A stretch of 62,047 nt of DNA, counting the filler. It is 3 parts of 3 records of this genome, joined end to end, with 100 filler letters (N's around TTAATTAATTAA, not from the genome) between each part and the next. Parts side by side here need not be neighbours in the genome. Positions count along the whole stretch, not along the records: positions 1 to 26,555 come from SRR20825006_2264; 2 more parts are not named here. One strand, given 5' to 3'. The notes under the pieces were generated by a model, which was not told the origin of the DNA, searched no databases, and saw nothing but the letters and a program-made list of their open reading frames with translations. Below are positions 10,825 through 26,655 of this stretch, piece by piece. Positions within the stretch are counted from its first letter, which is position 1, and each line of letters begins with the position of its first letter. The position numbers and the translations under genes were made by a program.

Positions 10825-11103
10825 GGGTAATTTCCTTAATGTCCATATTTTTTTAGCATTTCCTTAATAGTGAATGTTAATTTTGTCAATTGTGAAAGTA
10901 TATATAGAGATTCAATAAAATTGGCAATTGAAGAGGTGTATTTCTTTTTGGATTTATAATTAAAGTAGGATATTTTTTCCATCATTAAAGTGCCATTTCA
11001 CAACAAAACCATCTTGCCATACAACATAACTTCTCCAATCTACCCTGTTCTTGATAAGTTTGGGTATGCCTTACTACGTAAGGAACACCTCATCATCCAA
11101 ACT

Positions 11104-14100
11104 ATGAACAAACCCCAATCCTCCCTAATTTTTAGGTGTTTTTTAGTGTTGACCCTTCTTGGTATAGCTTCGGTTCAAGTGGGATATGCACAGGATTGTG
11201 TTGTTATCGCAGGACCCAATCAGGTCGTTTCACAGGTCAATGCCGTTTTGATGGATGCCAATGCCGCACCAGTTGACGGTTTGGGAACTTGGAGCCGTTT
11301 ATCTGGCCCATCTTCGGTAATCATTGCTGATGTAAATGACCCCCAAACCCAATTATTGGATTTGGTGCCGGGAGATTACATTTTTGAATGGACCGTTTCC
11401 GGTTCTAGTTGTGATGAAGCATCAGACTTGATCGGTATTACAGTACAGGGTATAGATCTGGAAATGGAAATTGTGGCAAGCAATACCGAACCTGATATTG
11501 GCGAAGTGGTAACTTTCACTGTAAACATGAGCAATTTTGGAGATATCGATGCAACAAATGTTGTGGTAGAATATTTTGTGCCCTCTGGATATTCCAATAT
11601 TGCCGCAATCGATAATGCCGGTTCTGTAGATGGTTCACAGAAAATCACATGGTTTGGATTTGATGTGCCAGTAGGGAGCAATACAGTTTCTTTAAGCTTT
11701 AATGCCACGGTACTTACCCCTACAGGGTCCAATGGAGAGTACACTCATGTGGCTGAAGTGATCTATGCCGATCAAATTGATGAGGATAGTACTGCGAACA
11801 ATGACGATGGTGACCAGAGCGAAGATGATGAGGATAACATTGATGCCGCTCCGGTTCAAGCTGATCTATCTCTTAGTAAATCCGTAGTAGGAGGGAACAT
11901 GTCCCCTTATGTGGACTCACAAACCAGTTTTGAGATATCCGTAACCAACAACGGACCTCATGATGCCACCAATGTCCAGGTTCAAGACCAATTGATGTCA
12001 GGGTTCAGTTTTGATTCTTATTCGTCGACATCGGGGACCTATGATCCCATCACGGGAATTTGGGAAATAGGAACTGTGGGCAATGCAACTACGGAAACAC
12101 TTACCGTTGTAGTTGATATAAATGCCTCGGGAAATTATACAAATACAGCACAAATAATCGCTTCGGATGCTTTTGATATTGATTCAACACCCAACAACAA
12201 TATTCCGGCCGAGGACGATCAAGATGAAATTATTCTGACGCCAGAGCCGGTAATTGACCTCTCATTGACCAAAACTATTGATAAATCACCGCCTTTGGTA
12301 AGCGACAATGTAAGGTTTACCCTAACGGTGGCCAACGACGGTCCCAGTGGAGCAACTTCTGTAGAGGTATTGGATCTATTGCCCTCTGGATATACCTATG
12401 TTTCTGACGATGGTGGAGGTGCTTACGATGAAGTTACTGGTGTTTGGAATGTGGGTTCGGTTGCAAGCGGTGACTCAACCAGTTTAAGTATCCTTTGCAA
12501 CGTAAACGCTTCTGGAGATTATGATAACATGGCAGAAATTATAGCTCATGATCAAACGGATATGGATTCAACTCCGAACAACAATGTCCCTGGTGAAGAC
12601 GATCAAGATGGTGTATCGGTGATACCGGTACCATTGGTGGATATATCCGTTGCCAAAACGGTAGACCAAGTCATCCCGGAAGTGGGAGAGGAGATACTTT
12701 TTATGGTCACGGTTCAGAATGATGGTCCAAGTGATGCCACCAATATTGTGGTCACGGATGTTTTGTCCACTGGTTATCAATTGGTGAGTTCCAACCCTTC
12801 CATTGGAACTTATAATTCTACCAACGGCTCATGGGTTGTGGGTGATTTGGCCGACGGAGCTTCTGAAACTTTGGAAATTACCGTAGAGGTTCTGCCAACA
12901 GGAAATTATTCCAATACCGCCGAATTGACCAATGTCTCGGAAATGGATGTGGATTCCAGCCCAAACAACAACAACGAGTCGGAAGATGACCAGCAGACCA
13001 TTGAACCCATAGTTATTCCAGTGGCCGATTTGCTATTGCAAAAATCTGTTAATGTTCTGAGTCCGTATGTGGGTCAAGATGTGATCTTTACCATCAACAT
13101 TACCAATTTGGGCCCAAGTGAAGCCACAGGGGTCGCAGTAATGGATTTGCTGCCTGATGGATATACCTATGTTTCCCACGGAACCACGGCAGGCATCTAC
13201 AATGAAAGCTCGGGAATGTGGAATCTTAATGGAACCTTGGAAGATACAAGTACAGAAACCCTTACCATTGTGGCCACGGTGAACAACACAGGGGATTACT
13301 TCAACGTTACGGAGGTTTTTTCTTCCGATCAGTACGATCCCAATTCCATACCCAACAATAACAGCATTTTTGAGAATGATCAAGACAATGCCGGGACCAC
13401 TCCCGTTCCTTCTGCTGATTTAAACTTGAATGTGAGTGTGGACAACGCAACTCCGGACGTAGGTTCAGAGGTTATTTTTACCATCACACTGACCAATGAA
13501 GGGCCAAGTGATGCCATCGGAATTGTTGTGGAAAACACGTTACCGGATGGATTTACCTATGTTTCCGATAATTCAGGGGGACTGTTTAATCCATCAAACG
13601 GAATTTGGAGCGTGGGCAATCTGGCTTTGGAGTCACAGATAGAGCTTCAAATAATTGCCGAAGTAAATCCTTCGGGTGATTATACAGCGAGTACCGAGTT
13701 GATCAATGCCATTTTTTTCGATATAGATTCAACGCCTGGCAACAATGCACTTTCAGAAGATGATCAGGATGAACAAACGGTCGTGCCAAGACATGTTGCC
13801 GATATTTCCGTTTTCAAAACTGTAAGCGATATGAACCCAGAAGTTGGGGAGGAAATCATTTTTACTGTTGAGGTGAACAATGATGGGCCGAACGATGCTT
13901 TTGGATTGATCATTGAAGATGAGTTGAGGAACGGTTACCAATTTGTTTCGGCAACCACATCGGCCGGAAATTATGATGAAATTGCTGGTACATGGGATTT
14001 ACCATCTTTAACAAACGCCTCGATCGAAACATTGGAGATACGGGCAATTGTACTTGCTAGTGGTGAATATCGGAATAGGGCCGAACTGATTGCTTTGGAT

Positions 14101-15249
14101 ACTTTTGACCCTGATTCCACACCCAACAATAACTTAGGCTCCGAAGACGATCAATCAACAGTGACACCTATTCCAGAAGGCTTGAGCGATTTGTCGCTTT
14201 CCAAAACCGTGGACAACACAAACCCCAACGTTGGTGATGTGGTTCGCTTTGTGCTGAGCGTTACCAATAATGGCCCGTCCGATGCCAGAAATGTAGAAGT
14301 AACCGATATGCTTCCAATGGGTTACACATACCAGTCACACACCTCCACTGCTGGAATATACAATCAGGCTACCGGAATTTGGCGCATAAACAGGACCATT
14401 CTGAATCTGGAAACTGAAAGTTTAGAGATTTTGGCCGTTGTAAATGCGCCAACAAGTGCAGAAGACGAATATTTGAACGAGGCTTTTGTTTCTTCAAGTT
14501 TATATCCTGACCCTGATAGCTACCCATCAACCGGAATCGGGGAAGATGATTTTGCCGACAGTATTGCGGACGATGACGAGGCATCAGCTTTTGTAGTGCC
14601 TCAAACCACGGATATTGCCATTACAAAAAGCGTAAACAATGTAATGCCCAATATAGGGGATGAGGTTGTTTTTGAAATAACGGTGATCAATCAAGGTCTG
14701 GATGATGCCACATATATCGGCATACAGGAAGAATTGCCCTTGGGCTATCAATTCATCAGTTCGGAAACTACAGTAGGAAATTATGATGCTGAATCTTCAT
14801 TTTGGGAAATTGAATCCCTTGCGGTTACCGAAACAGCAACCCTATTGCTTACTGTTGAGGTTATGGATATTGATGATTATGTGAATAGGGCAAGCCTTGT
14901 CTTTGTAGATCAGTGGGACACCAATGAGATCAATAATGAAGCAGAGGCGTTTGTAGATCCAAGTTGTCTTGTTGTTTACAACGAGTTTTCCCCTAACGGA
15001 GATGGGGTCAACGATTATTTTAAGATTGATTGCTTAGGCCATTACCCGAATAATACGCTTCAGGTTTATAATCGTTGGGGAAACATCGTTTTCCAGACAA
15101 AATCCTATAAAAATGATTGGGATGGTACGCCAAACGGACGCGCTATGGTACAGCCCGAGGACCAGTTGCCCGTGGGTACCTATTATTATGTATTGGATTT
15201 AGGGGATGGTTCGGAGCCAAGAACGGACTGGTTGTATTTAAACAGATAA
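11104..15249 (+). CDS. Large T9SS type-B substrate: PKD-like domain, 9 DUF11 repeats and a gliding-motility-associated C-terminal domain (ORF track start 10990; ATG 11104 fits the signal peptide better)
   Basis: Nine ~130-aa repeats DLxxxKxV...NxGPxxA...DxLPxG...W. CTD FSPNGDGVND...YNRWG...YKNDWDG...GTYYY. Adjacent PorP/SprF gene. Confidence 0.9.
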   Translation: MNKPQSSLIFRCFLVLTLLGIASVQVGYAQDCVVIAGPNQVVSQVNAVLMDANAAPVDGLGTWSRLSGPSSVIIADVNDPQTQLLDLVPGDYIFEWTVSGSSCDEASDLIGITVQGIDLEMEIVASNTEPDIGEVVTFTVNMSNFGDIDATNVVVEYFVPSGYSNIAAIDNAGSVDGSQKITWFGFDVPVGSNTVSLSFNATVLTPTGSNGEYTHVAEVIYADQIDEDSTANNDDGDQSEDDEDNIDAAPVQADLSLSKSVVGGNMSPYVDSQTSFEISVTNNGPHDATNVQVQDQLMSGFSFDSYSSTSGTYDPITGIWEIGTVGNATTETLTVVVDINASGNYTNTAQIIASDAFDIDSTPNNNIPAEDDQDEIILTPEPVIDLSLTKTIDKSPPLVSDNVRFTLTVANDGPSGATSVEVLDLLPSGYTYVSDDGGGAYDEVTGVWNVGSVASGDSTSLSILCNVNASGDYDNMAEIIAHDQTDMDSTPNNNVPGEDDQDGVSVIPVPLVDISVAKTVDQVIPEVGEEILFMVTVQNDGPSDATNIVVTDVLSTGYQLVSSNPSIGTYNSTNGSWVVGDLADGASETLEITVEVLPTGNYSNTAELTNVSEMDVDSSPNNNNESEDDQQTIEPIVIPVADLLLQKSVNVLSPYVGQDVIFTINITNLGPSEATGVAVMDLLPDGYTYVSHGTTAGIYNESSGMWNLNGTLEDTSTETLTIVATVNNTGDYFNVTEVFSSDQYDPNSIPNNNSIFENDQDNAGTTPVPSADLNLNVSVDNATPDVGSEVIFTITLTNEGPSDAIGIVVENTLPDGFTYVSDNSGGLFNPSNGIWSVGNLALESQIELQIIAEVNPSGDYTASTELINAIFFDIDSTPGNNALSEDDQDEQTVVPRHVADISVFKTVSDMNPEVGEEIIFTVEVNNDGPNDAFGLIIEDELRNGYQFVSATTSAGNYDEIAGTWDLPSLTNASIETLEIRAIVLASGEYRNRAELIALDTFDPDSTPNNNLGSEDDQSTVTPIPEGLSDLSLSKTVDNTNPNVGDVVRFVLSVTNNGPSDARNVEVTDMLPMGYTYQSHTSTAGIYNQATGIWRINRTILNLETESLEILAVVNAPTSAEDEYLNEAFVSSSLYPDPDSYPSTGIGEDDFADSIADDDEASAFVVPQTTDIAITKSVNNVMPNIGDEVVFEITVINQGLDDATYIGIQEELPLGYQFISSETTVGNYDAESSFWEIESLAVTETATLLLTVEVMDIDDYVNRASLVFVDQWDTNEINNEAEAFVDPSCLVVYNEFSPNGDGVNDYFKIDCLGHYPNNTLQVYNRWGNIVFQTKSYKNDWDGTPNGRAMVQPEDQLPVGTYYYVLDLGDGSEPRTDWLYLNR

Positions 15250-15252
15250 AGA

Positions 15253-16194
15253 ATGGAGTTGGTTTCATCGAAATATAAAATAATCGGAGGTAAGCATGTA
15301 CTTGTGCTACTGCTTGTCCTATGCTCCATTTTTGGTTATTCTCAGCAAGACCCGCAGTTTACGCAATACATGTACAACACTATGAGTGTCAATCCCGCAT
15401 TTGCTGGCAATAACGGGCATTTAACCGCCTTGTTGTTGCACCGGTCGCAATGGGTGGGGGTAAATGGTGCTCCCAATACGCAGGTGTTGGCGGTAGATAC
15501 ACCTTTAGAAAATAAACTTGGGGTAGGAGGAATCATATCGCGCGATGCCTTGGGTCCCTCATCCGAAATATCATTGGACGGAAACGTTTCGTATACCATT
15601 CAGTTGGATAGTGCCCATAGCAAACTATCCTTTGGTATGAAGCTCGGCGGGCGTATTTTTGATGTAGATTTTTCCAAGGGACTTACCGAAGATTCCGATG
15701 TGGCTTTCCAGAATAACATCAAGAGCAAGTTTTTCCCCACCATTGGAGCAGGACTTTATTATGATACAAAAAAGGGGTATTTGGGCTTTGCCATACCCAA
15801 CTTTTTTTCGCAGAAGCATTATGATGGCGAGGAACAGGAAATCGCTGCAGAACGCTTGCACTATTATTTTATCGGAGGAAAAGTGGTGGATTTGACCCCA
15901 GATGTGAAACTAAAGCCAGCTTTCTTCGTAAAGTGGGTGCCCGGTGCTCCGATTATTGCCGATTTATCGGTGAATGCTATGCTCAGGGAAACCTTCACTT
16001 TTGGATTGGCCTACCGTTGGGACGATTCATTTTCCACATTGTTGGGAATGCAGATCAATCCAAACTTTAGTGCTGGGTATGCTTATGATCTTACCACTTC
16101 AAACTTGGCCAGCTATACGGGCGGTTCCCACGAATTATTTGTGCGATATGAGTTTAAATCTTCCCAAAAACAAAAGGAGGAGCCTACATTTTAG
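15253..16194 (+). CDS. PorP/SprF-family T9SS outer-membrane beta-barrel
   Basis: QQDPQFTQYMYN...NPAFAG, RSQWVG..GAP, GYAYD, GSHE; directly follows a type-B CTD gene. Confidence 0.92.
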   Translation: MELVSSKYKIIGGKHVLVLLLVLCSIFGYSQQDPQFTQYMYNTMSVNPAFAGNNGHLTALLLHRSQWVGVNGAPNTQVLAVDTPLENKLGVGGIISRDALGPSSEISLDGNVSYTIQLDSAHSKLSFGMKLGGRIFDVDFSKGLTEDSDVAFQNNIKSKFFPTIGAGLYYDTKKGYLGFAIPNFFSQKHYDGEEQEIAAERLHYYFIGGKVVDLTPDVKLKPAFFVKWVPGAPIIADLSVNAMLRETFTFGLAYRWDDSFSTLLGMQINPNFSAGYAYDLTTSNLASYTGGSHELFVRYEFKSSQKQKEEPTF

Positions 16195-16850: not shown

Positions 16851-17314
16851 CTATAAACGTTTCATCGCCTCTATCAAATCATCTCTTTTTCTTGGTGAAA
16901 TATTCACCTGCATATCACTGCTCATGATAAGGTGCCCTCCATCAGATTTAACATATTTCTTTACCTTTTTTAAGTTGATAAGGAAACTGTTGTGTACCCG
17001 CATAAAGTTGTGTTCTGAAAGTAGCATTTCGTATTCCTTTAGATGCTTGCTCACCAAGAGCATACTTTGATCTTGCAACATAAAACAAGTGTACGAGCCA
17101 TCCGCTTTGCAGGCCACTATGTCATCTAAGGCAATAAACTCCATTCCAGCCGTGGGGTGGCCAAGCAAATTTTTTCGGGACGTACTTTTCCGCGAGAAAT
17201 GCTTTGCATTAATATATCTAACTGTTCTCTGTAAACATTGGTGTCCATTCGGTTTCTTGCCTTTTCCACCGCTTGCTGAAGTTCGTCCAAATCTATAGGT
17301 TTTAGTAAATGCAT
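16851..17314 (-). pseudogene. Truncated, frameshifted LytTR-family response regulator
   Basis: The receiver tail (LLKPIDLDELQQAVEKA...KICLAT) is in ORF 17126-17314. The LytTR domain (ADGSYT, VSKHLKEYE, FMRVHNSFLINL) is in another frame. The shift is at the GGGG run near 17154-17157, and the receiver N-terminus is absent. Confidence 0.75.
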
Positions 17315-17725
17315 GAATGCGGGTTTTGAATTGACGGATGGGCCAGTTGAGTTTATCTAGGTTTTTTTGAAGCCCCTTTTTTTGCCGAAATATGAGATCT
17401 TGATGGTTATCTGAACAAGCCAATAATTCTCTGGATTGATAAATTAGGGAGAAGGGGTAGGTTCCAAATAAAAAAACCATTACAACCAAGGAACTTTTGT
17501 AGTTCCTTGGCGTAACGGAAACCTCAACTAAACTAAACACTTTTTTGACCAACAGTCGCCAAAAGTGAATTGCTATCTGTGCATGCGTTATATTGATCTT
17601 GCTTATCAATATGCATGCAGGACAAACATAGAATCAATAAATGAGATTTTAGGGCCCCAATTAACGGATGCCCCTTTTTAAACCAATGAATGGCCCATTT
17701 GAATTGGTGGGTGAAAATTTGACAT

Positions 17726-17778: not shown

Positions 17779-18108
17779 TTAGGAAATTTCTTCCACTGAT
17801 GCGTCCGGCGCATTTTTTTTGACGGATGCAATGCCATTTTCCATAGCTGAATCACTGGAATACATTTCGCTATTTCCAATAACTTGTCCGTTGGATGCTT
17901 TTAGGTTAAAGTATGGACTGCCGTCTTTCGCAGTGTTTCTTTCAAAATTCTCATCGTCCTGTGAATGTTTTTTTACAGATTCGATACCATTTTCGCAAGC
18001 AGATTTGGTGGTGTACCCTTGACTGCTTAAAATAACTTGGCCATTTCCAGCTTTTAAATTAAACCTGAACTTTCCGGCTTTATCCGTGTTAATCTCAAAT
18101 TTTCCCAT
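17779..18108 (-). CDS. YegP/DUF1508 family protein
   Basis: Two repeats FNLKAxNGQVI..S..Y......ENGIxSVKK. Confidence 0.9.
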   Translation of the reverse strand: MGKFEINTDKAGKFRFNLKAGNGQVILSSQGYTTKSACENGIESVKKHSQDDENFERNTAKDGSPYFNLKASNGQVIGNSEMYSSDSAMENGIASVKKNAPDASVEEIS

Positions 18109-18208
18109 ATTTTATATATTTTAAGTAATAAATCTAGAGATTTTCTTAAAAAACTACCAATAAATACCTTGAAATTTGATAATAAAATAAAGTTTGGCCA
18201 CATGGTAC

Positions 18209-18238
18209 AAAAAAGGAGGCCATCAGCCTCCTTTTTTT
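18209..18238. terminator. Intrinsic terminator downstream of proA
   Basis: AAAAAAGGAGGC-CATCA-GCCTCCTTTTTTT. Confidence 0.8.
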
Positions 18239-18256
18239 GTTTGATGCAATATATGT

Positions 18257-19456
18257 TTACACCCTTATCTGCCCATCGCCAAATACATAGTATTTGTTGG
18301 TGACCAGTTGTTTTAGTCCGAGTGGCCCTCGGTGGTGCAATTTGTCCGTACTGATTGCGAGTTCCGCACCAACGCCCATTTGCCCACCATCAGTGAAACG
18401 GGTGGATGCGTTTTGGTATACCGCAGCACAGTCCACATTTTCCATGAACGTTTTGGCTACACTATTGTTCTCCGTCATTATGGATGCTGAGTGCCCTCCA
18501 GAGTTCTTGTTGATTTTATCCATGGCTTCGTCAATATTATCGACAGCACCAATAACACACTTCATGGCCAAGAACTCTTCTTGCCAAATGGATTCATCGG
18601 TAATGGCATCCTCATTGGTCAATGTTTTTTTGACTTTATCATCCACGATTATGGATACATTGTTTGCCGTGAGTACTTGTTGTAATTCTTTCAGCTTGTC
18701 TTCATAACCATCAATTTGAGTATCAACCAAAATTTTGTCCAAGGCATTACAGGCCGAAATCTTATGGGTTTTTGCGTTCAAAATCACTTTCAAACTTTTT
18801 TCCCAATCGGCTTCTTTGTGCACATATAGGAAATTGTTCCCTCTACCGCTTATGAGCACCGCGCATTTGGCGTGTTCTTTTACAAAATTGATCAATCGTT
18901 CGCCGCCACGGGGAACAATGAGGTCTAGCTCCTGATCCGGATTCCTAAGGAACTCCTGTGTTTGGGTCCTGTCCATCTCCATAAACTGGATATAATCTTT
19001 GGACAGACCATTTTCGGTCAGGGCTTGATGCCAGAACTTAACCAAGGCTTTGTTGCTGTGGTAAGCTTCCTTACCTCCTTTGAGCAATATTTTATTATTC
19101 GCCTTAAATGCAAGTACGGCTGCCTCAATGGTTACATCGGGGCGGGACTCGTAAATAATCATTATGGTGCCAAAAGGAGCAGTTCTGTTGATGATTTTGA
19201 GTCCGTTGTCCAATTCCCTTGTGGAGATTTCCTTATTGACCGGGTCATCTTGCAAGCGAACTTCTTTCACGGCCTGGATCATTTGGTCCACTTTCTTTTG
19301 GTCCACCACCAAACGATCGTACAATGCTTGATCGTCGCGGTTGAATGCGTCTAAATCTTTTTTGTTTGCTTGGAGCAATTCGTCCCGATTTTCATCAAGG
19401 ATTCGCTCCATATCTTGCAATACTTTATTTTTTAAATCTGTTTTTAATAATTTCAT
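18257..19456 (-). CDS. proA: Gamma-glutamyl phosphate reductase
   Basis: IYESRPDVT, LKGGKEA, IVPRGG, SACNALD, NASTRFTDG, ISTDKLHHRGPLGL. Confidence 0.95.
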   Translation of the reverse strand: MKLLKTDLKNKVLQDMERILDENRDELLQANKKDLDAFNRDDQALYDRLVVDQKKVDQMIQAVKEVRLQDDPVNKEISTRELDNGLKIINRTAPFGTIMIIYESRPDVTIEAAVLAFKANNKILLKGGKEAYHSNKALVKFWHQALTENGLSKDYIQFMEMDRTQTQEFLRNPDQELDLIVPRGGERLINFVKEHAKCAVLISGRGNNFLYVHKEADWEKSLKVILNAKTHKISACNALDKILVDTQIDGYEDKLKELQQVLTANNVSIIVDDKVKKTLTNEDAITDESIWQEEFLAMKCVIGAVDNIDEAMDKINKNSGGHSASIMTENNSVAKTFMENVDCAAVYQNASTRFTDGGQMGVGAELAISTDKLHHRGPLGLKQLVTNKYYVFGDGQIRV

Positions 19457-19461
19457 TGTTG

Positions 19462-20232
19462 TTATTTTGAAACTTCTGTTCCTACATTTTTTCCTTCTAC
19501 AATATCCAGGATTACGTTATCTCGTTTCCCATTGACAATGTAAGATGGAATGTCTGCCGCTGCGGCTTTTTGGGCATAGTTTAATTTTGATCCCATGCCA
19601 CCACGGCCTTCGCCTTCTTGTTTGTTTCCCTCTTCTATATACTTGTCCAAGTCTTCTTTTGGCTCGACCTTGTCGATTACCTTGGAATCGGCTTTTTCTG
19701 GATGTCCATCGTAAAGGCCATCAATATCCGTCATTAGGATAAGTCTGTCTGCCTTCATCAGTTGTGCCAGCAAAGTGGCCAATTCATCATTGTCCGAAAA
19801 CATGGACATGGATACGGAAACGGCATCATCCTCATTGGCAATCGGAATCACGCCTTCGGAAAGGAGTCCTTCCAAGCAATTGATCATGTTGTCGCGGTGC
19901 ACGCCAGGATTAAAATCCCTTTTTGTTGGGAGTACCTGGGCACATTTCATTCCGTAATCGTTGAATATGTTATAATAATGCCTCATCATTCTGGGTTGCC
20001 CAATGGCGGAATATACTTGCCTACGTTGGGTCTTATCTTTGATCTTTGCTTTTCCCAGAACCTCTTTACCGGCGATTACCGACCCAGAGGAGACCAAAAT
20101 GGTCATGATGTCACGTTCGTAAAGCTCTGCAATTTGTTGTACCAAATTGTTGAGCACTGGTCTTACAATTCTGTTGTCTTTGTTGGTCATCACATTTGTA
20201 CCTACTTTGATGACCACTAGTTCTTTATACAT
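19462..20232 (-). CDS. proB: Glutamate 5-kinase (no PUA domain)
   Basis: VIKVGT, VSSG, AIGQ, NEDDAV, FSDNDELA, GRGGMGSKL. Confidence 0.95.
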   Translation of the reverse strand: MYKELVVIKVGTNVMTNKDNRIVRPVLNNLVQQIAELYERDIMTILVSSGSVIAGKEVLGKAKIKDKTQRRQVYSAIGQPRMMRHYYNIFNDYGMKCAQVLPTKRDFNPGVHRDNMINCLEGLLSEGVIPIANEDDAVSVSMSMFSDNDELATLLAQLMKADRLILMTDIDGLYDGHPEKADSKVIDKVEPKEDLDKYIEEGNKQEGEGRGGMGSKLNYAQKAAAADIPSYIVNGKRDNVILDIVEGKNVGTEVSK

Positions 20233-20235
20233 GTT

Positions 20236-21042
20236 TTAGTATTCTTCGCCCAGTTCCACAGCTCTACCGAATGCTGCAAAGGCGGCTTCTTTGATTAATT
20301 CGTTTACATTGTTGTCTTCCATGGAGTCCAAGGCGGCCCTGGTGGTTCCTCCTTTGGAGGCTACCATCTCCATCCAAGTGTCGGGATTTAGGTTGTTCTG
20401 GTTGAACAATTCCACGGCACCTGTAAATGTTTGGCTCACGAGTACTTTGGATACATTTTCGGAGAATCCCATTTGTAGTGCGGCTTCCATCATACTTTGC
20501 ATGAAGTAGAAAACATATGCTGGTCCACTTCCAGAAATTCCGGTAGATGCATCAATATATTTCTCATTTTTCACTCTAAGCGATTTACCCGTTGTATCCA
20601 ACAGCCCTTCGACCATAAAAAGTTCCAATCGGGAAACTTCCTCGGCGGACACGTAGCTGGTCAAACCCTTACCAACTTGAGCTGGCAGATTGGGCATGGC
20701 CCTTACCACTTTTTTGATACCAAGGGCTTCCTGTATATAGTTGATGGTGACCCCTGCCATAATGGATATGAACAATTGTTCTGGGTTTACCAATGGTTTC
20801 ATGCGCCCAAAAAGTTCCTCGGCATGATATGGTTTTACGGCCAAAAAGATGATATCCGCCTGTGGAACACAATCTTCGATTTTGTCAATGGCATCGAAAT
20901 AGGCTATTTTACCTACTTCTTCCAATTTTTCTTTTGATTTGTCCAGCACCATGATGTTGCGTTTTTTCAACAATTTGGATTTAGACATACCTGTGGCATA
21001 GGTAAGCCCCATGTTACCTGCGCCAATAACCAATACTTTCAT
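20236..21042 (-). CDS. proC: Pyrroline-5-carboxylate reductase
   Basis: IGAGNMG, LAVKP, SIMAG, RAMPN, SGSGPAY, VASKGGTT. Confidence 0.95.
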   Translation of the reverse strand: MKVLVIGAGNMGLTYATGMSKSKLLKKRNIMVLDKSKEKLEEVGKIAYFDAIDKIEDCVPQADIIFLAVKPYHAEELFGRMKPLVNPEQLFISIMAGVTINYIQEALGIKKVVRAMPNLPAQVGKGLTSYVSAEEVSRLELFMVEGLLDTTGKSLRVKNEKYIDASTGISGSGPAYVFYFMQSMMEAALQMGFSENVSKVLVSQTFTGAVELFNQNNLNPDTWMEMVASKGGTTRAALDSMEDNNVNELIKEAAFAAFGRAVELGEEY

Positions 21043-21082
21043 TGTTTATGTTAAAAGGTTTATATAAAAAGTTCTAATAATG

Positions 21083-21274
21083 TTATGATAATACGTTGCA
21101 ATCGTTGCAATCTTTGACCTTACCGTAGTATGTTGAACGGTATCTGTGCAAAGTGCGTACGGGAAGTCCCATTATGTACCTTCTTATATAGGTGACACGG
21201 GTAGTAAGTTCTCCCATTTTAACGCTATAGCGTTTTTCATATCTTGTTTCCCTTTTAATTCTTGAAAGTCTCAT
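21083..21274 (-). CDS. Small, very basic hypothetical protein with a C-terminal CxxC
   Basis: 63 aa, ATG with an A-rich upstream region, co-oriented and tightly spaced between rpsU and proC; 16 Arg/Lys; CNDC. Confidence 0.65.
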   Translation of the reverse strand: MRLSRIKRETRYEKRYSVKMGELTTRVTYIRRYIMGLPVRTLHRYRSTYYGKVKDCNDCNVLS

Positions 21275-21308
21275 TTTATTGTTATTGATACTTTAATTTT
21301 TGATGTTA

Positions 21309-21503
21309 TTAGTCTTCCTGTTCGTTCAGGAATTGCTCTTTATATTGTGCCTTTTTAAGTGTTTTTCGGCGTTCTACTGATTTTTTGGTATACTCTTGCC
21401 GGCTGCGTATTTGGTCCAAACGCTTTGTGTTTCTATATTTTCTTTTATAGCGTTTTAGAGCCCTTTCAATACTTTCGCCTGGCTTAACTTCTATTTTTAA
21501 CAT
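21309..21503 (-). CDS. rpsU: 30S ribosomal protein bS21 (probable paralogue)
   Basis: VKPGESIERALKRYKRK...RQEYTKKSVERR pattern, 64 aa. Confidence 0.9.
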   Translation of the reverse strand: MLKIEVKPGESIERALKRYKRKYRNTKRLDQIRSRQEYTKKSVERRKTLKKAQYKEQFLNEQED

Positions 21504-21511
21504 ATAATGGT

Positions 21512-21955
21512 TTATCTGTTCAATCTCATTTCTAAATGGGTTGCGCTGAACCCTTTATCTTCAAAAAATTTTTTATTCGGATATTGGTTTTCACCTGTAA
21601 TGTGAACGGCAACGTCTCCTTTACAATATTGCAGGGTGTAGTCCAATAGTTTTTGCTCTATATCGTTGTTTCTATAATCTCTGTGAATCACAAAGAATAC
21701 CAAGAAATTTTCGGGTATATAATCTCCCATGCCTGTTTTGTTTACAACTGCCAAACCTAAAATTTCATTTTTGTCCTCCATGGCGAACACATATCCGCCA
21801 AGTCCGGGAATATCTTTGGTAGAATATTGTATAGCCTTTCTAATTGCTTTTTTTGTAGCTCTCTTGCCCTCTTGGTGGTCAAAGAGAAAATTGGCAAACC
21901 GGTCGGCTTCCATGGTAGAAAGCCTTGTATAGGCATCGTAGGTCTTAATTACCAT
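21512..21955 (-). CDS. GNAT-fold protein with a degenerate acetyl-CoA-binding loop
   Basis: GNAT-like order GGYVF...TGMGDYIPEN...HRDYR...FFEDKGF...EMRL; YRNNDIE where RxxGxG is expected. Confidence 0.7.
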   Translation of the reverse strand: MVIKTYDAYTRLSTMEADRFANFLFDHQEGKRATKKAIRKAIQYSTKDIPGLGGYVFAMEDKNEILGLAVVNKTGMGDYIPENFLVFFVIHRDYRNNDIEQKLLDYTLQYCKGDVAVHITGENQYPNKKFFEDKGFSATHLEMRLNR

Positions 21956-22099
21956 GCTTTTGTTTTGAACGATAATGGATTAATTTTTAAGTTTTTAGTT
22001 TAGTTAAAGCTTCGATTAGGGCTAAATGGAAAAGGATGGACGAAATGTCCTTAAGTTCCCATAGTAATAGGGTCTACTTCCCGAATAAGGGGAAGGTAA

Positions 22100-22201
22100 T
22101 TAAAGGGTAGGCGGAATGAACTTATCTGACTGGTTTCTGAATACCAGATAATTAAAACTTAGGATTCTACAGTTTTTTCTCTCGTGGAGCTTAACGTTCA
22201 T
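22100..22201 (-). CDS. Putative 33-aa leader peptide MNVKLHERKNCRILSFNYLVFRNQSDKFIPPTL (below ORF-track cutoff)
   Basis: Hand translation: ATG at 22201, TAA at 22102-22100. The ATG is 5 nt after a TACCTTTG element. Confidence 0.4.
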   Translation of the reverse strand: MNVKLHERKNCRILSFNYLVFRNQSDKFIPPTL

Positions 22202-22206
22202 CGAGA

Positions 22207-22238
22207 CAAAGGTAAGAAAATAAGGCCTTAAATCCCAA
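22207..22238 (-). promoter_or_regulatory. Bacteroidota promoter TTG-N21-TACCTTTG for the GNAT-rpsU-proCBA unit
   Basis: Plus strand CAAAGGTA at 22207-22214 and CAA at 22236-22238. Confidence 0.6.
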
Positions 22239-22266
22239 TAATACAAGGGGTTTATGCTTTTTATAA

Positions 22267-22287
22267 CGTAATAGGTGCCCTATTACG
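22267..22287. promoter_or_regulatory. Perfect inverted repeat CGTAATAGG-TGC-CCTATTACG, candidate operator or hairpin
   Basis: 9-bp arms with a 3-nt spacer, about 30 nt upstream of the -33 element. Confidence 0.45.
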
Positions 22288-22372
22288 ATTTGTCGAAAAC
22301 GTTATAGTGCCATTTGCTTTTTTAATGGGCCATACGGCCTAGGGTAATAGGGGAGCGAGCGCTATGGTGCAA

Positions 22373-23398
22373 TCAGGCTGGAACAAGGCGGGAATTTTGC
22401 TTGTCCTTATATTCCTTTGGACTACAATTGTATCTTGCTTTGAAAATTTTTGAAAAATAACTTCTGCTTATGAATCCGATGCTATAGACCACCTGTGAAA
22501 TATTTAAATCAGTGGTCTTTATCAATTCTTCCGCTTTACATATTCTTACATTTCGGATGTAATCGGTCACTGTGGTGCCGTGCATCAATTTGAAGCCTTC
22601 TTGCAATTTTGAAGGAGATAGCCCGCTTTTTTTGCATAAATAGGATATGGGCAGTTTTCTCTCTATATAGTTGCTGATGAATTCCGAAAGCTCTTGTACC
22701 ACCCCTCTTTCCCTAGAAGTCAGCATTGAGTCACGAAGAACAGCATTCTTTAAGTCGTCGGAATGTTGTTGTATTTCCAATGCCAATATCATGTGTACCA
22801 ATCCCTCGATCATTATTTTTCGGGCAATGCCATCTATGGAAATACTTTTAAGCTGTTGTATTTTATCCGCTACCTTTAAATTATGGGAACCTACATAAAC
22901 AAAATTGTCGTTCTCCATGTTATCGAAGAACAGTTTCTGTAGTTTTTGGTTGAGGTTTTTTTCTGCTCTATTGTTCTTCGAAGGATTTACGATGATCAGC
23001 ATCATTTTTAAGTTGGTGGATTCGTCAAAGTACAATAGGTTGTCCTGTGAGGAGTTGCTGGCCAACATTCCAGTTTGAAAACTTTCCAGTTCGGTTTTTT
23101 TGCCATTTTTCCCAAAGCTTTGCGCTATCTGCCCTTGGGAACAATATGCAAAGCAAATGGAGGTGTACTCTGGCGAATTGACGACCATGGTTAAATCTTT
23201 GGTAAATTTAATATCGAACTCCATATAACACATACCATCATTAAACGAGATTCCTTTGATATAGCCGTCTCCAAAGTCATTGTTGATGTCAAGAGTATGT
23301 TCGTTGTTCGAATCGACCTTTAGGTCGCCCCCAATATCATTTTGAAACTGTTCAAACATATTTCTAAAGTATGTGGTCTGTGGCGCTTTTGTTTTCAT
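22373..23398 (-). CDS. AraC-family transcriptional regulator
   Basis: C-terminal double HTH GLSPSKLQEGFK...YIRNVRI..AEELI...ISQVVYSIGF.SRSYFSKIFK..Y..SP. Confidence 0.92.
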   Translation of the reverse strand: MKTKAPQTTYFRNMFEQFQNDIGGDLKVDSNNEHTLDINNDFGDGYIKGISFNDGMCYMEFDIKFTKDLTMVVNSPEYTSICFAYCSQGQIAQSFGKNGKKTELESFQTGMLASNSSQDNLLYFDESTNLKMMLIIVNPSKNNRAEKNLNQKLQKLFFDNMENDNFVYVGSHNLKVADKIQQLKSISIDGIARKIMIEGLVHMILALEIQQHSDDLKNAVLRDSMLTSRERGVVQELSEFISNYIERKLPISYLCKKSGLSPSKLQEGFKLMHGTTVTDYIRNVRICKAEELIKTTDLNISQVVYSIGFISRSYFSKIFKARYNCSPKEYKDKQNSRLVPA

Positions 23399-25529: not shown

Positions 25530-25790
25530 GATATCTAATTTTTTAAGGTTAAAACTTATGTTCGCTCAAAAAGATAAGCCTACATAATTCCTTAGATTGA
25601 CGCAAAAGGAAATAACTTGAATGGTATCGGGTTGTGTTGAAATTCCATCAACCGTTGTCACATTTCTGATTGTCCGCGATGGATTGCTTTGTTTGAACCA
25701 ATTTTTTTATGGATACCATCAATCAATAGCATACAAAATGGATATCATATAGGTATTGAAGTGTATTTCAACAAACATAAATTCCCGAAT

Positions 25791-26555
25791 ATGAGCAAAA
25801 CCAAAGAACAAAGAGCAATTGATACCGTAAGAATACTATCGGCAGATGCCGTACAACAAGCTGAGTCCGGACACCCGGGCACAGCAATGGCACTTGCGCC
25901 CATGGGGCATATACTTTGGGCACAGGTGATGGATTATAACCCAAAAAACCCTGATTGGGCCAATCGTGATAGATTCATACTTTCTGCTGGCCATGCCTGT
26001 ATTCTCCAGTACAATTTTTTGTATTTGACAGGGTATGACATCAACATGGATGATTTAAAAGATTTTAGGCAGTTGCATAGCAAAACGGCCGGGCACCCCG
26101 AAAAACACTTGTTGGACGGCGTGGAGGTTACCACAGGGCCGTTGGGCCAAGGTTTTGCTAATGGCGTGGGTATGGCCATTGCCCAAAAATATATGGCCGC
26201 GCGGTTCAACAAACCCGATTTTGATTTATTCGATTATAAGGTGTATGCGATTTGTAGCGATGGAGACCTTATGGAAGGAATAAGTGCGGAAGCTGCTTCG
26301 TTGGCAGGGCATTTAAAGTTGGGCAATATCATTTATTTGTATGATGACAACCATATCTCCATAGAAGGTGACACCAGTATCACATTTTCAGATAACACCT
26401 CCAAACGCTTTCAATCCTATGGATGGCACGTACAGGAACTGGATGATGGTAATAATGTAGAAGCACTCTCCAAAGCAATTATAAAAGCTGGAGAAGAGAG
26501 CGAACGTCCTTCCCTTATAAAGGTACGCACCCATATTGCCTATGGCAGTCCCAAC
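25791..26555 (+). CDS. tkt: Transketolase, N-terminal part (cut by the linker)
   Basis: SGHPG, NRDRFILSAGH, GHPE, TTGPLGQG, SDGDLMEG ThDP motif. Confidence 0.93.
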
Positions 26556-26655
26556 NNNNNNNNNNNNNNNNNNNNNNNNNNNNNNNNNNNNNNNNNNNNT
26601 TAATTAATTAANNNNNNNNNNNNNNNNNNNNNNNNNNNNNNNNNNNNNNNNNNNN
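26556..26655. other. Artificial contig linker
   Basis: 44 N + TTAATTAATTAA (stops in all six frames) + 44 N; genes on both sides are truncated. Confidence 0.98.

Follow-up and report, generated by a model that had tools for sequence, protein, structure and literature searches.

Why should a gene for ribosomal protein bS21 lie among genes for proline synthesis, and what controls such an arrangement? The question is raised by a minus-strand gene array in the window, a stretch of 62,047 nt of DNA from a marine flavobacterium. A short leader open reading frame (ORF) is followed there by genes for a GNAT acetyltransferase, bS21, a 63-aa basic protein, and the proline enzymes ProC, ProB, and ProA, and the ORF listing returns this array as the original prediction, made from the letters alone, had claimed it. 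That prediction read the array as a stress module that changes ribosome composition and proline supply together. The comparison of related loci supports this coupling in part: bS21 is associated with the unit recurrently, but it is not the core of it, and the central element is the leader peptide. The prediction had listed the leader in the unit without giving it a role, although in the reading favored here it is the regulatory heart of the locus. With slightly better than even confidence, the leader is taken to be a ribosome-stalling sensor of prolyl-tRNA or of osmotic state that would control read-through into the operon.

The evidence for the leader begins with its conservation. When the window proteins were mapped on the 30 best loci from a search of 301 Flavobacteriaceae genomes with the 63-aa protein, the leader region was found to be conserved across genera, even where the GNAT or pro genes are absent. 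Over 15 genera the consensus is MxKGIHExxNxRIFNFNFLVFRNQSDKFIPPxx, with 15 of the 33 positions invariant (alignment A1), Pro30-Pro31 among them. The end of the peptide reads ...VFR.QS.KFIPP, in which the K-F-I-P-P is invariant and the stop codon comes after a further two to six residues that vary. In the nucleotide alignment of the leader loci, changes are concentrated at third codon positions: when a core of 20 codons is compared pairwise among 29 loci, codon positions 1, 2, and 3 diverge on average by 0.10, 0.10, and 0.48, and the pairwise codon differences are 3200 synonymous versus 1245 non-synonymous. The loci for this test were selected by peptide pattern, which introduces a bias toward amino-acid conservation but cannot create a third-position signal, and by this codon-position divergence the leader ORF is translated. 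The predicted ORF is thus real, with its start corrected; the conserved start is the ATG at 22201 rather than the TTG at 22246, which would give 48 codons.

A profile of the leader has one strong match each (E < 1e-12) in 31 of the 301 Flavobacteriaceae genomes, whereas 83 other families of Bacteroidia, sampled with 388 genomes, have none. The Bacteroidia search took in 401 genomes, and its sole leader match was G001, the genome nearest to the window (62% of sampled words shared), on which genome-wide statements in this study rest in place of the window's own assembly. The operon proteins of G001 are 100% identical to those of the window, and a 48-aa query from the leader region is 98% identical. 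Exact look-up of five leader peptides in a collection of 15 billion proteins found none of the five, so the ORF is unannotated with this start. The family may extend to variants that the profile finds weakly, such as a divergent 29-aa peptide in G020 ending ...CIPPTT (profile E 3.5e-6; L162, 1294-2964, minus strand), which has the small protein on one side and an RpoD-like sigma factor on the other; the 160-aa gene after this sigma factor is presumably Dps-like. A degenerate DNA pattern for F-R-x-Q-x4-I-P-P matched, among 205 loci, only the known leader loci and that of G020. It had no match in 66 of the 67 small-protein loci L139-L205, the exception being L162, and none within the flanks fetched for the sigma-bS21 loci L099-L124, so no leader was found in those flanks ahead of the usual sigma-bS21 modules.

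The position of the leader is as constant as its sequence, since in 31 of 31 loci it is the first cistron behind the promoter. Promoters of Bacteroidetes have the consensus -33 TTG and -7 TAnnTTTG. A generic sigma-70 scan of the window was uninformative (23 promoters found, 21.3 expected from shuffles), and because it did no better than shuffles and the Bacteroidetes consensus differs, the Bacteroidetes motif was searched instead. The -7 box ahead of the leader (TACCTTTG) ends 5 nt before the leader ATG, and the TTG begins 24 nt upstream of the start of the box; over 17 loci the TTTG/TAnnTTTG and -33 boxes align, at a nearly fixed distance of 4-5 nt from the ATG. A search with a fixed spacer (TTG-N19-TAnnTTTG) gave 3 sites in the window against 2.2 expected and missed the leader promoter, the spacer of which is 21 nt. 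The minus strand of 18100-22460 has two TAnnTTTG boxes, the second of which lies within the GNAT gene and has no -33 TTG, and none of the gaps between operon genes on that strand contains one. The leader promoter is therefore the only box with an upstream TTG in that region, as expected from the claim of one upstream promoter.

What follows the leader differs among the 31 loci. In 16 of them it is GNAT, the small protein, proC, and proB, with or without proA. The two loci of the window's genus (G001, G296) have GNAT, bS21, the small protein, and proCBA, while G218 has GNAT, bS21, and proCBA, and in two further loci the small protein is followed by proC, with or without proB. Elsewhere the leader is followed by GNAT and the small protein and nothing more (two loci), by the small protein alone (two loci, G230 and G094), by the small protein and an RpoD-like sigma factor (G113), by bS21, the small protein, and the proA remnant of a decayed pro operon (G172), by GNAT, an M20 peptidase, and two alanine-racemase-like genes (G271), by a BCCT transporter (G023; PF02028, E 1e-193), or by a 396-aa protein with a signal-like N-terminus and then an ABC ATPase with CBS, a permease, and an OpuAC binding protein (G283); in G299 the contig ends. 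Overall, proC is present in 21 of 31 loci, GNAT follows the leader in 22, and bS21 is present in four. The transporter set of G283 is, judged from its domains, a ProVWX-type betaine/proline transporter. The common denominator of these payloads is compatible-solute supply together with stress regulation, and the stress and osmolyte theme of the original prediction is supported, because transporters of the ProVWX and BCCT types and an RpoD-like sigma factor are found behind the leader too.

Some variation within these payloads should be recorded. In nine of the 16 loci with GNAT, the small protein, proC, and proB, proA does not come after proB within the mapped stretch (L065, L066, L070, L072, L075, L084, L086, L088, and L091). 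In G271 (L087, 2670-6056), the M20 peptidase and two proteins of the alanine-racemase fold replace the pro genes after leader and GNAT; this set may be a route to an N-acetylated or D-amino-acid solute, and it hints that the GNAT substrate is a small molecule rather than a ribosomal protein. Immediately upstream of the leader promoter, many genera have a gene for a 93-99-aa membrane protein that we take to be YajC-like, with a terminator-like hairpin after it (for example, L007, L012, L014, L017, L018, L022, L024, and L030). In the window's genus, AraC or other genes occupy its place.

In the window itself, the locus looks like a single transcription unit from promoter through terminator (Table 1). 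The gaps from GNAT to proA, recomputed from the coordinates, are 8, 34, 40, 3, and 5 nt, in exact agreement with those predicted. The single terminator that had been placed after proA is found as a hairpin that begins 19 nt past the proA stop codon and has a T-run on both strands. Contigs from marine metatranscriptomes, 100% identical to the window, tile it from 22178 to about 19461 and bridge the unit from the leader through proB; no contig in these metatranscriptomes bridges the proB-proA junction. The claim of one operon is upheld by the single good promoter, the single terminator, and the bridging contigs. Both contigs that include part of the leader come from a single study (two runs) and stop at 22178, 23 nt into the leader ORF, and the AraC side (22326-22450) has no contig in any of the three metatranscriptomes, a pattern that is weak evidence for a transcript starting at the leader. 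None of the Rfam 15 covariance models reached its gathering score in the window, and a relaxed scan of 20900-22500 gave only two chance-level matches (E 0.3-0.36).

Table 1. Positions of the leader unit and of the metatranscriptome contigs that bridge its junctions, counted along the window
Feature	Position	Strand	Basis or detail
Bacteroidetes-type promoter	22207..22238	-	-33 TTG 22238-22236; -7 box TACCTTTG 22214-22207
Leader ORF, 33 codons plus stop	22100..22201	-	MNVKLHERKNCRILSFNYLVFRNQSDKFIPPTL; Pro-Pro codons 22114-22109; stop 22102-22100
Spacer, 144 nt, untranslated	21956..22099	-	two predicted hairpins, about 22095-22077 and about 22062-22026
GNAT acetyltransferase, 147 aa	21512-21955	-	PF13673, 27.6 bits, cut-off 23.6
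Accessory bS21 paralog, 64 aa	21309-21503	-	PF01165 and TIGR00030
63-aa basic 'CxxC' protein, predicted all-beta, uncharacterised family	21083-21274	-	homolog search and AlphaFold
proC, pyrroline-5-carboxylate reductase	20236-21042	-	TIGR00112, 235.6 bits, cut-off 196.75
proB, glutamate 5-kinase, short form	19462-20232	-	TIGR01027, 222 bits, cut-off 186
proA, glutamate-5-semialdehyde dehydrogenase	18257-19456	-	NF001221, 434.7 bits, cut-off 289
Intrinsic-terminator-like hairpin, bidirectional	18209..18237		12 bp, A6 and T6 flanks
Leader-GNAT junction bridged	X5 21798-22178; X7 21724-22178		metatranscriptome contigs
GNAT-bS21-small protein junctions bridged	X6 21248-21530		metatranscriptome contig
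bS21-small protein-proC junctions bridged	X7 20953-21370		metatranscriptome contig
proC-proB junction bridged	X5 20056-20281		metatranscriptome contig

The gene identities in Table 1 come from scans of the proteins with Pfam and NCBIfam. The equivalog-level NCBIfam cut-offs are exceeded by proC, proB, and proA alike; proB covers only positions 3-251 of the 363 in TIGR01027, so it has no PUA domain. The bS21 protein matches PF01165 over residues 4-56 with 48.8 bits (cut-off 27) and TIGR00030 with 42.2 bits (cut-off 28.95). Family matches also confirm the stress-related genes that had been reported nearby, YegP/DUF1508 (17779-18108, downstream of proA), MgtC, and DJ-1/PfpI. The AraC gene described as directly upstream is present at 22373-23398, but it is not conserved at other leader loci; it stands 5' of the leader only in G001, one of the 29 mapped leader loci of 9 kb (30 were fetched, and the script detected no leader in L094), and is absent in G296 of the same genus. 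A relative's contig departs from the window sequence at 22269.

Between the leader and the first gene of the payload lies an untranslated spacer, which in the window begins its first hairpin 6 nt past the leader stop codon. Over the loci its length is 44-252 nt, mostly 130-155 nt. The first 78 nt fold more stably than dinucleotide shuffles, with a mean z of -1.74 and values below -1 in 20 of 29 loci and below -2 in 11 of 29; the spacer of L078, identical to that of the window, folds at -18.8 kcal/mol (z -2.09). A skew of C over G is mild (0.16, versus -0.03 in an upstream control). The spacer may act by intrinsic attenuation, by Rho-dependent polarity, or by translational effects.

The reading of the leader as a regulator is based on its place as first cistron behind the promoter, on the Pro-Pro near its stop codon, on the structured spacer, and on the interchangeable but related payloads. 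The translation of the leader, its conservation, and its payloads are observations; stalling, the signal for it, and a termination step are proposed. The mRNA would probably be leaderless or nearly so, because the ATG is only 5 nt after the -7 box. When prolyl-tRNA or proline is short, for example through a hyperosmotic draw on the proline pool, the ribosome would pause or arrest at Pro-Pro, and the conserved residues upstream of Pro-Pro would strengthen the arrest in the exit tunnel. A ribosome stalled a few nucleotides before the structured spacer would either prevent premature termination or open the spacer, and the downstream genes would be on; with smooth translation and release, the spacer would be left free and expression would be off. 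The payload so controlled would be compatible-solute supply, which in the window takes the form of proline synthesis; other genera have osmolyte importers or a sigma paralog instead. The accessory bS21 is read as coming from a family-wide pool and as recruited into the unit several times; in the window it would be co-induced with proline synthesis. Because the autoregulatory Shine-Dalgarno (SD) sequence is absent and Tyr54 is kept, the operon bS21 could displace canonical bS21 on 30S subunits.

The closest documented analogues of the leader are the mgtP and mgtL ORFs in the mgtCBR and mgtA mRNAs of Salmonella (Lee and Groisman 2012, PMC3641672). In mgtP, a pair of adjacent proline codons is enough for both proline limitation and 0.3 M NaCl to induce expression, and the rest of the peptide can be scrambled (PMC3641672). 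Both systems have a short ORF that is translated in the 5' leader and contains neighboring proline codons (33 codons with Pro30-Pro31 here), while induction by proline limitation or hyperosmotic conditions and an effect on transcription of the downstream coding region are proposed here by analogy. The systems differ in payload, which is proline synthesis or osmolyte import here and Mg2+ transport in Salmonella, and in conservation, which here extends beyond plain Pro-Pro to 15 invariant residues while scrambling is tolerated in mgtP. The leader ORF here also starts about 5 nt past the -7 box, in an organism that dispenses with SD sequences, and its spacer is structured in 29 loci on average, without defined alternative stem-loops. 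TnaC, SecM, and SpeFL are conserved nascent peptides with critical residues along the exit tunnel and proline at or near the arrest site; TnaC also has tryptophan bound in the exit tunnel and a possible Rho-dependent step. The leader resembles them in being a strongly conserved peptide with a long untranslated spacer before the regulated gene, and arrest is predicted for it. Unlike them, it places its stop two to six codons after Pro-Pro and not directly at proline, it has no sequence similarity to them, and its family is restricted to Flavobacteriaceae among the sampled genomes.

If a ribosomal protein gene is present in such a unit, then its relation to the rest of the bS21 genes has to be established. 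As for whether the operon copy is the sole rpsU, it is not; G001 has three S21 genes, one canonical and two accessory, and since the canonical rpsU is separate, the operon bS21 is an accessory paralog, 58% identical to the canonical copy. The canonical gene has a TAnnTTTG box and the SD sequence AAAGGAGGT 9 nt before its ATG, and its neighbors are presumably xerC-like and hpf-like; no GGAGG-like SD sequence occurs in the 8-nt gap or the 3' end of the GNAT gene before the operon bS21. The third S21 gene of G001 (L003, contig 82) is about 24 kb from the operon, beside genes for an NYN/OST-HTH (LabA-like) protein and an RpoD-like sigma factor, with an ORF on its other side that we take to be tyrosine-integrase-like. 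The operon bS21 keeps Tyr54 but has Lys55 in place of Ile55 and KKS in place of the KPS motif, and all copies of bS21 linked to the leader or the small protein read Y/F-K/R at positions 54-55.

These positions have a known role in Flavobacterium johnsoniae, where bS21 takes part in sequestering the anti-SD, with Tyr54 stacking on A1534 at the turn of the 16S tail toward its pocket and Ile55 making van der Waals contacts (PMC7797042). In Flavobacteriales, rpsU has an extended SD sequence and is autoregulated by bS21 (PMC9976891), and the canonical rpsU of G001 carries the extended SD described there. The window protein keeps the Tyr54 that is a signature of the phylum (PMC7797042, PMC9976891), while the operon copy differs from F. 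johnsoniae bS21 in Lys55, KKS, and the missing SD; transcribed from the leader promoter without that SD, it would escape the autoregulatory loop. Francisella tularensis has several bS21 paralogs, and ribosomes with different translational preferences have been proposed (PMC9578407, PMC13374519). That bacterium belongs to another phylum, and the paralogs here are tied to RpoD-like sigma factors, to GNAT, and to the proline/osmolyte leader unit. Zinc-free (C-) paralogs of ribosomal proteins under Zur are likewise switched on under a specific stress (PMC9976891); bS21, however, binds no zinc, and the neighboring 'CxxC' protein has a single non-invariant CxxC and no match to a ribosomal family.

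Across the family, S21 is present in 291 of 301 genomes with 406 matches, and 105 of the 301 have two or more (hand count). Of the 30 loci that come closest to the window paralog, 16 have an adjacent RpoD-like sigma factor of 287 aa, two of which continue into a GNAT 36% identical to that of the window; the other 14 are four leader loci, one with a broken small-protein gene (G171), three canonical loci, and six without a recognised neighbor. These genomes have two to four RpoD-like sigma factors, and the accessory pool is usually tied to one of them, in some cases also to a GNAT paralog. The tree that was built contains 33 S21 proteins, with seven of the 30 loci omitted because the selection pattern missed their ORF. 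It has a canonical clade (100/98), a sigma-linked clade next to it, and a divergent, poorly resolved group (97/96) that contains the window paralog, the other copies linked to the leader or small protein, and the third copy of G001. The copies in the divergent group never pair with the canonical copy of their own genome, which speaks against a recent origin by duplication. The leader, small-protein, or pro unit has an accessory bS21 directly beside it in G001, G296, G172, G218, G171, and G247, with additional variation in G247 (sigma-bS21-small protein-proCBA) and G172 (an additional GNAT-bS21 pair). Six genomes, five genera, and five different arrangements, together with the paralogous GNAT elsewhere, argue for a functional connection. 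A synteny survey therefore gives a divided answer: the association recurs, but bS21 as a conserved member of the unit does not hold, with 4 of 31 leader loci and an adjoining small protein in 5 of 108 genomes.

The 63-aa protein is more widespread than the leader, being found in 108 of the 301 Flavobacteriaceae genomes and having 1340 database homologs; most of the named rows among the homologs listed say 'hypothetical.' In the 108 genomes, 72 copies stand alone, 27 precede proC, 26 are behind the leader, and five have an adjacent bS21. The earlier label of a basic CxxC protein is correct in that the protein is basic and has a single CxxC, but the motif is not fixed: the first cysteine is threonine in 3 of 28 aligned homologs, and Cys59, the second of the CxxC, is the only cysteine invariant among them. 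The protein has no match in Pfam or NCBIfam. Its AlphaFold (AF2) model (pLDDT 79.6) is a meander of three to four beta strands, and no convincing fold neighbor was found (best Foldseek E 0.68, best VIA score Z 4.5). Two other identities were considered and rejected. A zinc ribbon or ribosomal protein is not indicated by one CxxC instead of two pairs, with the first cysteine variable, and a helix-turn-helix protein, suggested by the 'transposase' label of some homologs, was dropped because the model is all-beta. From its basic character, contact with nucleic acid or the ribosome is no more than conceivable. For the GNAT, no sequence relative worth naming was found in the PDB at E <= 1, and its Atlas neighbors are generic GNAT clusters, one of which carries the automatic name ribosomal-protein-alanine acetyltransferase, on which no reliance is placed. 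A GNAT paralog 35-36% identical to it adjoins accessory bS21 in G039 and G005 (sigma-bS21-GNAT) and on contig 9 of G172 (GNAT-bS21).

Several points weigh against the leader as a stalling sensor. The leader also heads units without an obvious role in proline or osmolytes, for in G230 and G094 only the small protein follows it, and in G113 it heads the sigma factor. In the spacers, no conserved sequence was found among the leader loci; a T-run follows a hairpin at several loci, but many hairpins, including both in the window, have no clear U-tract, and with neither a consistent U-tract nor a conserved sequence an intrinsic attenuator is not demonstrated. A sensor of proline codons does not need 15 invariant residues, given the scrambling tolerated in mgtP, so the peptide may act otherwise. 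The metatranscriptome contigs reveal no transcript ends, levels, or regulation, and RNA libraries may contain DNA; stalling, attenuation, and induction are predictions from sequence. As to bS21, its absence from 27 of the 31 leader loci makes it an add-on and not part of the core, and the presence of at least two S21 genes in 28 of the 31 leader genomes, versus 105 of 301 overall, may reflect shared ancestry only.

There are alternatives for the peptide. The leader could sense another signal, such as ionic strength or K+, the status of EF-P, or a small molecule in the exit tunnel, e.g. betaine, since its conserved body is closer to ligand- or context-dependent arrest peptides than to codon-run attenuators and since its payloads extend beyond proline genes to betaine importers, a sigma factor, and orphan small proteins. 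Such a signal is considered unlikely when 21 of the 31 payloads are proline biosynthesis and Pro-Pro is the only invariant feature with a known role in stalling. The same conservation, with its 15 invariant positions and hydrophobic FNFNFLVF core, could belong to a small protein that acts in trans, such as a hydrophobic micropeptide with a regulatory or membrane role, for which the place at the operon head would mean co-expression; purifying selection on the amino-acid sequence and the lack of a conserved terminator/antiterminator pair among the spacers are in its favor. However, first position behind a promoter in every one of the 31 loci, ahead of a long structured untranslated spacer and, where the contig continues, differing payloads, is the layout of a leader peptide, and the invariant Pro-Pro lies two to six codons before the stop; this explanation is regarded as improbable.

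The alternatives for bS21 range from chance to a dedicated function. If bS21 and the small protein were separately expressed insertions between GNAT and proC, then the juxtaposition would be fortuitous, and it is true that bS21 at this exact position is limited to one genus and that weak promoters might, in principle, fit into the 34- and 40-nt gaps. These gaps have no TAnnTTTG box, contigs from RNA libraries span GNAT, bS21, the small protein, and proC, and the small protein precedes proC in 27 of the 108 genomes, all of which leaves chance very little room. At the other extreme, the unit would be a dedicated stress module that changes ribosome composition along with proline supply, with bS21 as functional core and GNAT and the basic protein perhaps as partners directed at the ribosome. 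Abutment of bS21 and the unit is far above chance placement of about 115 accessory copies, GNAT and bS21 adjoin in three other places with the GNAT paralog, leader genomes mostly have multiple S21 genes, and the sigma paralog most often seen with accessory bS21 stands behind the leader in two genera. Yet 27 of 31 leader loci and 103 of 108 small-protein loci have no bS21 next to them, the small protein stands alone in 72 of the 108 and matches no ribosomal-protein family or fold, and entry of the paralog into ribosomes, like a ribosomal target of the GNAT, would be a prediction of this model; a module built around bS21 is accordingly doubtful. A broader and tentative proposal is that one nascent-chain sensor of a new class couples osmolyte supply to reprogramming of transcription and ribosomes. 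Near-leaderless translation and arrest at K-F-I-P-P would report the proline or osmotic state in Flavobacteriaceae that are blind to SD sequences, and the regulon would comprise proline synthesis, betaine/proline importers, an RpoD-like sigma paralog, and an alternative bS21.

Other features of the window lie apart from the leader unit. On the plus strand, 10990-16194 contains a 1419-aa ORF with about ten repeats of ~95 residues carrying ...DxDSTPNN... motifs and then a 313-aa ORF, which look like a large secreted repeat protein and its partner. A 252-aa ORF on the minus strand (16851-17609) has as its sole match a LytTR DNA-binding domain at residues 156-249; together with a 62-aa ORF read in a different minus-strand frame (17126-17314), presumably the end of a receiver domain, it may be a frameshifted response regulator. 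The window has an N stretch at about 26560-26603, since the last residues translated from the ORF at 25689-26603 are all X.

In the literature searched, supplements not covered, neither the leader peptide nor the family of the small protein was found described, nor was a proline operon that includes bS21, and bS21 paralogs are treated there only in general terms (PMC9976891). Control by leader peptides and paralogy of ribosomal proteins are themselves known; of the elements of this locus, the leader peptide is newer and easier to test than the bS21 paralog. To our knowledge, Bacteroidota have neither SD-led initiation nor T-box riboswitches, and we know of little about how their amino-acid and osmolyte genes are regulated. 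A conserved and easily mutated leader at the head of operons for proline synthesis and osmolyte uptake is a directly testable regulatory device in this phylum, and for ribosome biochemistry it is a candidate new arrest peptide. The accessory bS21 genes in about a third of the sampled Flavobacteriaceae genomes are a place to test whether exchange of bS21 tunes translation in bacteria whose bS21 governs access to the anti-SD. If the paralog does bind the 30S subunit, then its induction would lower the synthesis of canonical bS21 and shift ribosome composition, because it lacks the SD sequence by which the canonical rpsU responds to ribosomes free of bS21.

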